A DNA stretch of 49,675 bases from PVC group bacterium (GTDB lineage Bacteria > Auribacterota > Erginobacteria > Erginobacterales > Erginobacteraceae): NCBI GenBank assembly GCA_043804695.1, contig JAZDIV010000151.1, positions 1 through 49,675 on the forward strand, in the 5' to 3' direction. Made by a program: the position numbers and the translations under genes. Below, piece by piece: positions 41,672 through 41,889 of this stretch; position 1 is the first letter of the stretch, and each line of letters begins with the position of its first letter. Under the pieces are notes generated by a model. That model was given only the letters and a program-made list of their open reading frames with translations, did not search any database and was not told the DNA's origin.

Positions 41672-41782
41672 ATGATCAATGATGCGCACGAGATGGAAAC
41701 ATTAAGGAGCGTCAGCATGATGATGGGCATGCGATGTAGTCTGGCCGCCTGTCCGGGAGGAGAGGCTATGCCGAGCTATTGA
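41672..41782 (+). CDS. Putative Met-rich leader peptide [36 protein letters not shown] (alternative start 41717)
   Basis: 7 ATG codons in 36, including ATG ATG ATG GGC ATG at 41717-41731; AAGGAG just upstream of 41717; directly before the attenuator hairpins and metY. Confidence 0.7.
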
Positions 41783-41846
41783 CACACTCAAGTAAAGACA
41801 GTCGGTATAGCCCACAGCCGGAAGGCGGTCTGTGGGTTTTTTGTTT
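41764..41846 (+). terminator. Attenuator: antiterminator (41764-41774 / 41802-41812) overlapping an intrinsic terminator (41809-41846)
   Basis: GGCTATGCCGA pairs with TCGGTATAGCC; AGCCCACAGCCG-GAAGG-CGGTCTGTGGGTT followed by TTTTGTTT. Confidence 0.75.
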
Positions 41847-41889
41847 CCAGGGTTTGAATGGCCCGCGAAAAAAAAGAGGAGAAGAGAAA

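Follow-up and report, generated by a model that had tools for sequence, protein, structure and literature searches.

A probable methionine-codon leader-peptide attenuator ahead of metY-metX-metW in a PVC group bacterium

The genes metY, metX and metW lie one after the other on the forward strand of a contig from a PVC group bacterium (JAZDIV010000151.1, assembly GCA_043804695.1), which was analysed over its whole length of 49,675 nucleotides (the window). The genome comprises 2.97 Mb on 155 contigs, has a G+C content of 57.8% and is 88% complete. Between a putative promoter and metY we found a short open reading frame (ORF) with a run of Met codons, an intrinsic terminator and, overlapping both, the two strands of an antiterminator hairpin (Table 1). 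Probably these elements constitute an attenuator by which a ribosome translating the leader peptide controls transcription of the metY-metX-metW operon.

Table 1. Features of the metY-metX-metW locus and its leader, in positions of the window (MFE, minimum free energy; aa, amino acids; nt, nucleotides).
Feature	Position	Strand	Remarks
Predicted sigma-70-like promoter	41587..41615	+	TTGACA, 17 nt, AATAGT; TG ahead of the -10 hexamer
Leader ORF, 36 codons plus TGA	41672..41782	+	Length and cluster position (residue 16) fit the family (median 36 aa)
Possible alternative start	41704..41719	+	AAGGAG 41704-41709, 7-nt spacer, ATG 41717 (first codon of the Met run); read from the sequence
Local hairpin around the Met run	41705..41742	+	In the MFE structure; does not compete with the antiterminator
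Sensing codons Met16-Met17-Met18-Gly-Met20-Arg-Cys22	41717..41737	+	MMMGM part at 41717-41731
Antiterminator, 5' strand	41743..41774	+	Leader codons 24-35
GGAGG (41756-41760), 7-nt spacer, in-frame ATG (41768), three codons, TGA	41756..41770	+	Mostly unpaired in the antiterminator
Antiterminator, 3' strand	41802..41830	+	Overlaps the terminator 5' arm, the loop and the beginning of the 3' arm
Intrinsic terminator	41809..41846	+	Bulged G+C-rich hairpin 41809-41838, then TTTTTTGTTT to 41846
metY, O-acetylhomoserine sulfhydrylase	41890..43185	+	Pfam Cys_Met_Meta_PP 438 bits; TIGR01326 651 bits (cutoff 495)
metX, homoserine O-acetyltransferase	43286..44446	+	NF001209 491 bits (cutoff 331)
metW	44412..45086	+	PF07021 236 bits; TIGR02081 241 bits (cutoff 189.5)

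The leader ORF contains seven Met codons (residues 1, 8, 16, 17, 18, 20 and 33) and two Cys codons (residues 22 and 27). Five of the Met codons fall into its last 22 codons, four of these within five codons. The original prediction had described this ORF together with its MMMGM cluster, and reading and translating the sequence reproduced both. In the whole genome, both strands included, 17 segments hold at least four ATG per five codons, compared with 0.54 expected from the ATG frequency. Most of these segments lie inside long open frames or are without a terminator, and the one in the leader is the only one among the 17 that is followed by a hairpin with a U-run and then by a methionine gene.

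The terminator stem (41810-41820 / 41826-41837, one bulge) has a predicted energy of -19.6 to -20 kcal/mol. Folded alone, the terminator yields z = -3.74, with 1 of 200 shuffled sequences equally stable. Its end lies 44 nt ahead of the metY start codon, and the Shine-Dalgarno (SD) sequence of metY (41876-41886) is located outside the switch structures. The 5' arm of this stem is also part of the antiterminator hairpin, which spans 41743-41830 and reaches -44.6 kcal/mol versus -19.6 kcal/mol for the terminator. Three helices build up this hairpin: 41743-41750 with 41823-41830, 41752-41756 with 41818-41822, and 41764-41774 with 41802-41812. The last of them, 11 pairs including one G-U, was the antiterminator originally proposed, and it turned out to be the core of a far longer structure. 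The overlap of the antiterminator 3' strand with an intrinsic terminator, also part of the prediction, is present as well, and the terminator helix covaries in related leaders. When positions 41700-41850 were folded, the antiterminator hairpin dominated the MFE structure (z = -3.90); the longer segment 41622-41850 gave z = -4.19, and for either segment 0 of 200 shuffles were equally stable.

The influence of a ribosome was modelled by blocking a 29-nt footprint in equilibrium folds of the full leader and calculating the probability of the terminator stem. For the window this probability is 0.11 without a ribosome, 0.00 with the A site on the first or the middle Met of the run, 0.92 with the A site on Cys22 and 1.00 with the ribosome at the stop codon. 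The values of 0.00 and 1.00 agree with the predicted outcome that stalling at Met codons leads to read-through, and a ribosome at the stop codon to termination.

In the proposed mechanism, transcription would start at about 41622, and a ribosome would translate the 36-codon leader while RNA polymerase proceeds. If charged Met-tRNA is plentiful, the ribosome would arrive at the stop codon (41780) and cover 41764-41774, the 3' half of the antiterminator strand, so that the hairpin 41809-41838 could form and transcription would end in the U-run. If Met-tRNA is scarce, the ribosome would stall at Met16-18 or Met20 (41717-41731), its footprint ending before or at the very start of the antiterminator strand at 41743. 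The segment 41743-41774 would then pair with 41802-41830, block the terminator and permit transcription of metY-metX-metW. An untranslated leader is also expected to adopt the antiterminator; consequently, a loss of initiation under Met starvation would give the same outcome.

Homologous leaders were sought at 160 metY loci from metagenomes and metagenome-assembled genomes (MAGs) with a filter for Met runs, an nhmmer profile and visual inspection, and 21 of these loci carry one. They represent 18 distinct leaders (two pairs are identical and one leader is cut by a contig end), which were aligned with that of the window to give 19 sequences. A covariance model built from these 19 leaders (R1) matches exactly one copy in the genome of the window and one in each of five carrier genomes. 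A set of 150 relatives of the window's genome contributed one more full-length copy (in G042, of the same phylum), and 18 copies, including two tandem pairs, were found in 15 of 68 genomes of the class to which one 'delta proteobacterium' MAG belongs; R1 had no match in 150 further genomes from the phylum of the MAG labelled Lentisphaerae. With the 17 leaders added by R1 the family amounts to 36 members. The carrier MAGs are labelled uncultured delta proteobacterium, Syntrophales, Syntrophaceae, Desulfomonilia, Kiritimatiellae and Lentisphaerae.

Several candidates were discarded on the way to this family. The Met-run filter was positive for 17 of 177 upstream regions, and the positives L046, L039, L053, L009, L112, L175 and L019 were dropped, having no match to the leader profile. 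Likewise, L048 (nhmmer E 6e-5) was rejected as it has neither an ORF nor a terminator, and R1 matches in G032, G054 and G143 cover the terminator part only and were left out of the member count. L019, from a genome of the same phylum as the window (G024), has a 26-aa ORF starting with MEMM, located 173-92 nt upstream of a metY that is 63% identical.

The related leaders keep the arrangement found in the window; its parts, the competing structures and their conservation are what the sequences show. Across the 36 leaders the peptides measure 19-60 aa (median 36), and most Met/Cys clusters begin at residue 12-22. The last 22 codons of the 19 aligned leaders add up to 418, of which 87 are Met and 49 Cys (32.5%); none is a stop, in comparison to 26 and 11 stops in the other two frames of the same stretch. 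Upstream of the cluster a median of 28.5 codons is open in frame 0 versus 9 and 16 in the other frames, and an ATG at least 8 codons upstream of the cluster is found in frame 0 in 33 of 36 leaders versus 1 and 2 of 36 in the other two. The N-terminal parts of the peptides share little sequence. The clusters themselves (for instance MMMCCM.MCC, MMCCCMCM, MCCCMCMC and CRMCMCC, with MMMGMRC in the window) keep their content of Met and Cys codons in variable order rather than a sequence. Cys is encoded by TGC (26) and TGT (23), and the stop codons of the 19 leaders are TAA (11), TGA (4) and TAG (4).

On the RNA side, the distance from the stop codon to the U-run is 56-72 nt in 19 of 19 leaders. 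The terminator helix covaries in this alignment: 90% of the cells are paired (28-51% in slid controls), 6 of 9 pairs have both partners changed, and none of 500 shuffles attains the score. In an alignment-free scan, 15 of 19 leaders had the best complement of the terminator 5' arm at 21-36 nt ahead of the stop codon, where the mean duplex energy dips sharply to -15.3 kcal/mol, compared with about -4 to -6 kcal/mol elsewhere. Cognate antiterminator strands pair with a mean energy of -17.8 kcal/mol versus -13.9 kcal/mol for non-cognate ones, with a mean z of -2.2 against shuffles. The geometry of trp/his-type attenuators on which the original prediction was based, i.e. an ORF, a Met (and Cys) cluster, an antiterminator strand and a terminator at a fixed distance from the stop, is hence retained across related leaders. 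The comparison of metY upstream regions, suggested there as a check, yielded conserved Met/Cys runs and a conserved terminator; the covariation of the antiterminator at fixed register was not significant.

In the main (class-level) subfamily, the Met run moreover pairs with the segment right after the stop codon, forming a 1:2-type helix with compensatory changes. In L070 and L211 an ATA replaces an ATG in the run, and the partner segment is changed to match. For 12 of 36 leaders, at most 5 of 200 shuffles form an equally good 1:2 helix. The helix is missing in the window, L113 and L133, which have three extra codons past the conserved ATG.

A number of observations weigh against an attenuator of this kind. 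In the window, the 1:2 anti-antiterminator pairing is absent (z = +1.57, 192 of 200 shuffles equally good). This pairing is common in the class of leader attenuators and is unnecessary for the switch; without it, an untranslated leader of the window should read through. The SD-like GGGGA (41661-41665) ahead of ATG 41672 is weak, and ATG 41717 has a better one. Comparison with the family nevertheless argues for ATG 41672 as the start. The antiterminator strand itself contains Met33 and Cys27, and a stall at either of them should favour termination. A simple terminator scan of 41000-42200 reported 0 sites, probably because of the bulge in the stem. Translation of the leader ORF, stalling and the response to Met are what we infer.

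The folding models and the family statistics add further reservations. In a second model, in which the transcript is cut ahead of the terminator 3' arm, the terminator 5' arm of the window is paired with a probability of 0.76 with the ribosome at the stop codon versus 0.64-0.67 with a stalled ribosome, and the pairing at the stop runs through an alternative short helix. Since this model failed to discriminate between the two states, the folding evidence for a switch in the window is supportive rather than decisive. Among 18 members, only 10 lose at least 0.2 of the 5'-arm pairing with the ribosome at the stop in the truncated model, and full-length masked folds gave clean switching in only 2 (the window and L150), most of the others always being predicted to form the terminator. 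At fixed register the antiterminator is 72% paired (slid controls 33-48%), and 68 of 500 shuffles reach its covariation score. Moreover, the sequences of the family are related and not independent, and all statistics and p-values derived from them overstate the support.

The distribution of the leader is a further point on this side: it was not found in the genome of the same genus, in 7 other genomes of the same family and in 5 of the same order that were searched. Searching 60 relatives with the DNA of the leader yielded just one 25-nt match, attributable to chance, and 29 metY loci of relatives showed neither a homologous leader nor a S-adenosylmethionine (SAM) riboswitch. Between MetY of the window and its best counterpart in the one genome of the same genus the identity is only 59%, compared with 86-91% for MetY of MAGs labelled Verrucomicrobiota, Kiritimatiellae and Lentisphaerae. 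The Lentisphaerae-labelled MAG with 91% identity (L133) also carries the leader. Because of this discrepancy between the relationships of MetY and of the genomes, metY and its attenuator may travel together by lateral transfer.

The antiterminator strand includes a second conserved arrangement, GGAGG followed at 7 nt by an ATG. In 33 of 36 leaders GGAGG stands 6-10 nt (exactly 7 nt in 27) before an in-frame ATG (30), GTG (2) or TTG (1); in 29 of those leaders this start-like codon is the last sense codon, and the sequence of the spacer is variable. Possible readings are a side effect of the G-rich strand and of pairing with a CAUG in the cluster, a brake holding the terminating ribosome on the antiterminator strand, or an internal 'start-stop' start whose occupancy would depend on initiator tRNA. 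In one alternative to the proposed mechanism, GGAGG-7 nt-AUG(-stop) would be a working ribosome-binding site or a ribosome brake that acts in addition to stalling at the Met run or in its place. A starting ribosome would need charged initiator tRNA, or pairing with the anti-SD sequence would slow down a translating one. In either case the antiterminator strand would stay covered while the terminator is made, and Met would be read via initiation or via the dwell time at the stop codon.

We consider such a role unlikely. The frequency of the motif, its position at the end of the ORF and the varying spacer are in line with it, but the G-rich strand is required anyway for pairing with the C-rich terminator arm. 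All three replacements of ATG are start codons, although GTG and TTG are equally conservative replacements by Val and Leu. In the window the motif is located in an internal loop, so that pairing does not require it, and the arrangement is kept in the window's subfamily, which has no 1:2 helix; in the main subfamily, on the other hand, the final CCAUGUAA can pair with CAUGG of the cluster within the 1:2 helix (MFE structure of L059). Furthermore, 3-4 codons follow the ATG in the window and in 3 other leaders. Combining both elements into a two-input ribosomal sensor, in which stalling at Met/Cys codons opens the operon and landing or braking at GGAGG-AUG closes it, is a speculative proposal to which we assign a similarly low probability. 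If true, the switch would also read the capacity for initiation (Met, possibly formylation), an attenuator principle that is undescribed for any amino acid.

An RNA-only switch with an incidental reading frame is very improbable, whether it would bind SAM, methionine or a similar ligand as a riboswitch or be recognised by an RNA-binding protein. In favour of such a switch, nucleotides are strongly conserved in the GGNAGGGGAGGTCC segment and in the terminator arm, third codon positions included. The cluster, in contrast, conserves its content of Met and Cys codons in varying order and not its sequence, and in 36 of 36 leaders the frame stays open across an N-terminal part that varies strongly and has an ATG upstream. 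Three different stop codons at a fixed place and the equal use of TGC and TGT point in the same direction. The helix between Met run and post-stop segment in the main subfamily, with its compensatory changes in L070 and L211, resembles the P1 stem of a riboswitch, but this closing helix is absent from the window.

Searches for known RNA families are consistent with this assessment. Rfam includes the leader families Trp_leader, His_leader, Leu_leader, Thr_leader and Phe_leader, and at gathering score neither these nor any other family matched in the whole window. At E up to 10, positions 41400-42000 gave only two unrelated weak matches, a Dictyostelium small nucleolar RNA and the lambda cIII thermoregulator, and 12 other leader loci had no match at E up to 0.1. 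Hence a SAM riboswitch or T-box, the occurrence of which on the window's leader was to be checked according to the original prediction, was not detected. In the genome of the window, as far as it is complete (88%), no SAM-I riboswitch (RF00162) was found, whereas control genomes did match; no control genome matched the models RF00521 and RF01727 (SAM-II and SAM/S-adenosylhomocysteine).

That the leader encodes a functional small Met/Cys-rich peptide (a metal binder or the precursor of a modified peptide), the hairpin being a mere gene end, is extremely unlikely: the C-terminal part is conserved as a peptide in many members and is rich in Cys and Met, but it is encoded by the very strand of RNA that can pair with the terminator arm, the N-terminal half is unconserved, the element always directly precedes genes of sulfur assimilation or methionine synthesis with L216 as the single exception seen, and neither Pfam nor NCBIfam has a matching family. 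In Pfam the leader peptides had no match up to E 10, and in NCBIfam only the peptide of the window gave one at chance level (E 0.13, 11.6 bits, cutoff 320). Among 5.8 billion predicted proteins, 2 unnamed ones match a 40-aa family member. The leader family has no entry in Rfam, Pfam or NCBIfam, and gene prediction hardly ever picks up its ORFs.

The genes downstream of the related leaders inform on what the attenuator may sense. Of 17 leaders found by R1, 12 precede an ORF whose N-terminus resembles MetY of the window (compared by eye and unscored), and three loci end before the downstream gene becomes readable. At 10 of 28 leader-bearing loci metX follows metY (tblastn, within the DNA compared). 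The family probably reports the supply of sulfur amino acids in general and not metY alone, because Cys codons share the sensing cluster and because of downstream genes such as that for phosphoadenylyl-sulfate reductase in G042. For the window, the two Cys codons had been suggested to add cysteine sensing. The idea finds backing in the Cys codons of the family's clusters, yet for the window itself cysteine sensing is doubtful, since Cys22 is located at the edge of the sensing zone and Cys27 inside the antiterminator strand.

Individual loci deviate from the common arrangement. The leader in G042, a genome of the window's phylum (L199, G042:C16:164209-167356), encodes 29 aa with the cluster MICCMAMC and has its own terminator. 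It is located after an Rrf2 regulator and before a phosphoadenylyl-sulfate reductase (173 bits, cutoff 154) and a PHO4-family permease, a context suggesting that the switch is also used for sulfate assimilation. Tandem pairs of leader and terminator, about 85 nt apart, stand before one metY in L206/L217 (G205:C1:2879833-2880212) and L204/L218 (G207:C4:87866-88245). G200 has two leader copies on different contigs; downstream of one of them (L216), an XdhC-like ORF scoring below its cutoff comes only at +326.

A different conserved element was observed upstream of metY in L033, L115, L116, L125, L034 and L114 (1300-1500) and in L036 (750-950). These metY genes are from Verrucomicrobiota-labelled MAGs and related metagenome contigs, and their products are 84-88% identical to MetY of the window. 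The element has a 9-bp closing stem, GGCUGGAGG/CCUCCAGCC, around about 70 nt with an invariant UUCCUC. RNAalifold predicted 17 pairs, 5 of them with double changes, and Rfam had no match for it up to E 0.1. Possibly this is a further, undescribed RNA switch of met genes.

Upstream of the leader, the putative promoter matches the consensus at 10 of 12 positions and, judged by its consensus match alone, is the sole site in 41000-42200 versus 0.7 expected in shuffled sequences. The transcript is expected to start at about 41622, which would leave a 5' untranslated region (UTR) of roughly 50 nt before the leader ORF. The 5' neighbours of leader and operon are thiG, a ThiH-like ORF (unscored) and thiS. 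In one metatranscriptomic run (X1), a 232-nt contig corresponding to 41651-41880 spans leader ORF and terminator at a depth of 2.3, for which DNA carry-over is possible. It differs from the window only by two extra T in the U-run (8 T versus 6 at 41837-41842), possibly a strain difference or slippage. The remaining two of three RNA runs had no contig for the locus, the X1 contig stops short of metY, and such contigs are no measure of transcript levels.

Genes for methionine synthesis are usually controlled by SAM riboswitches, T-boxes or proteins of the MetJ/MetR type, and the textbook examples of leader-peptide attenuation concern Trp, His, Leu, Thr, Phe and Ile/Val. As in the classical trp, his, leu, thr, phe and ilv attenuators of Proteobacteria, the window has a short ORF rich in codons for the product, an antiterminator 5' strand at the end of this ORF and a mutually exclusive intrinsic terminator before the first gene. 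In contrast to them, the family presumably senses Met (and Cys), for which we found no published case, matches no Rfam leader family and carries GGAGG-7 nt-AUG in the antiterminator strand; in the window, 1:2 anti-antiterminator pairing is missing in addition. With SAM riboswitches and Met T-boxes the element shares the choice between terminator and antiterminator in the 5' leader of a methionine gene. It differs in that no aptamer or T-box matches, in that the sensor would be a translated ORF and in that the proposed signal is the charging of Met-tRNA, in place of SAM or the binding of uncharged tRNA. A full-text search of the literature, in which subscription journals are mostly outside coverage, found no methionine leader-peptide attenuator.

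The mechanism of classical leader-peptide attenuators is summarised in bioRxiv 10.1101/834739, which also describes mycobacterial polycysteine short ORFs (the 'Cys ribulon'); these are leaderless and were shown to act on translation. Cys-rich leader ORFs without terminators have been predicted in Actinobacteria (PMC1262725). Both groups share with the mechanism proposed here an upstream short ORF, stalling at codons for sulfur amino acids and control of genes for sulfur amino acids. They are leaderless, restricted to Cys and directed at translation initiation of the next gene, in the mycobacterial case by occluding its SD, and involve no intrinsic terminator, whereas the window has a 5' UTR of about 50 nt, a cluster dominated by Met and a covarying terminator. 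The arrangement of SD, start and immediate stop in 29 of 36 leaders is reminiscent of the bacterial 'start-stop' mini-ORFs reported in bioRxiv 10.1101/520783. The ATG of the family differs from these in being in frame within a longer ORF and inside the antiterminator strand.

A switch consisting of a Met/Cys leader peptide and a terminator would extend classical attenuation to the sulfur amino acids. Methionine is also needed to start translation, which raises the question of how such a sensor copes when initiation fails; the predicted read-through of the untranslated leader in the window suggests one answer. Since the family is missing from the databases and its ORFs go uncalled, Met regulons in Syntrophales-like and some PVC-group genomes would presently be mis-annotated as unregulated.

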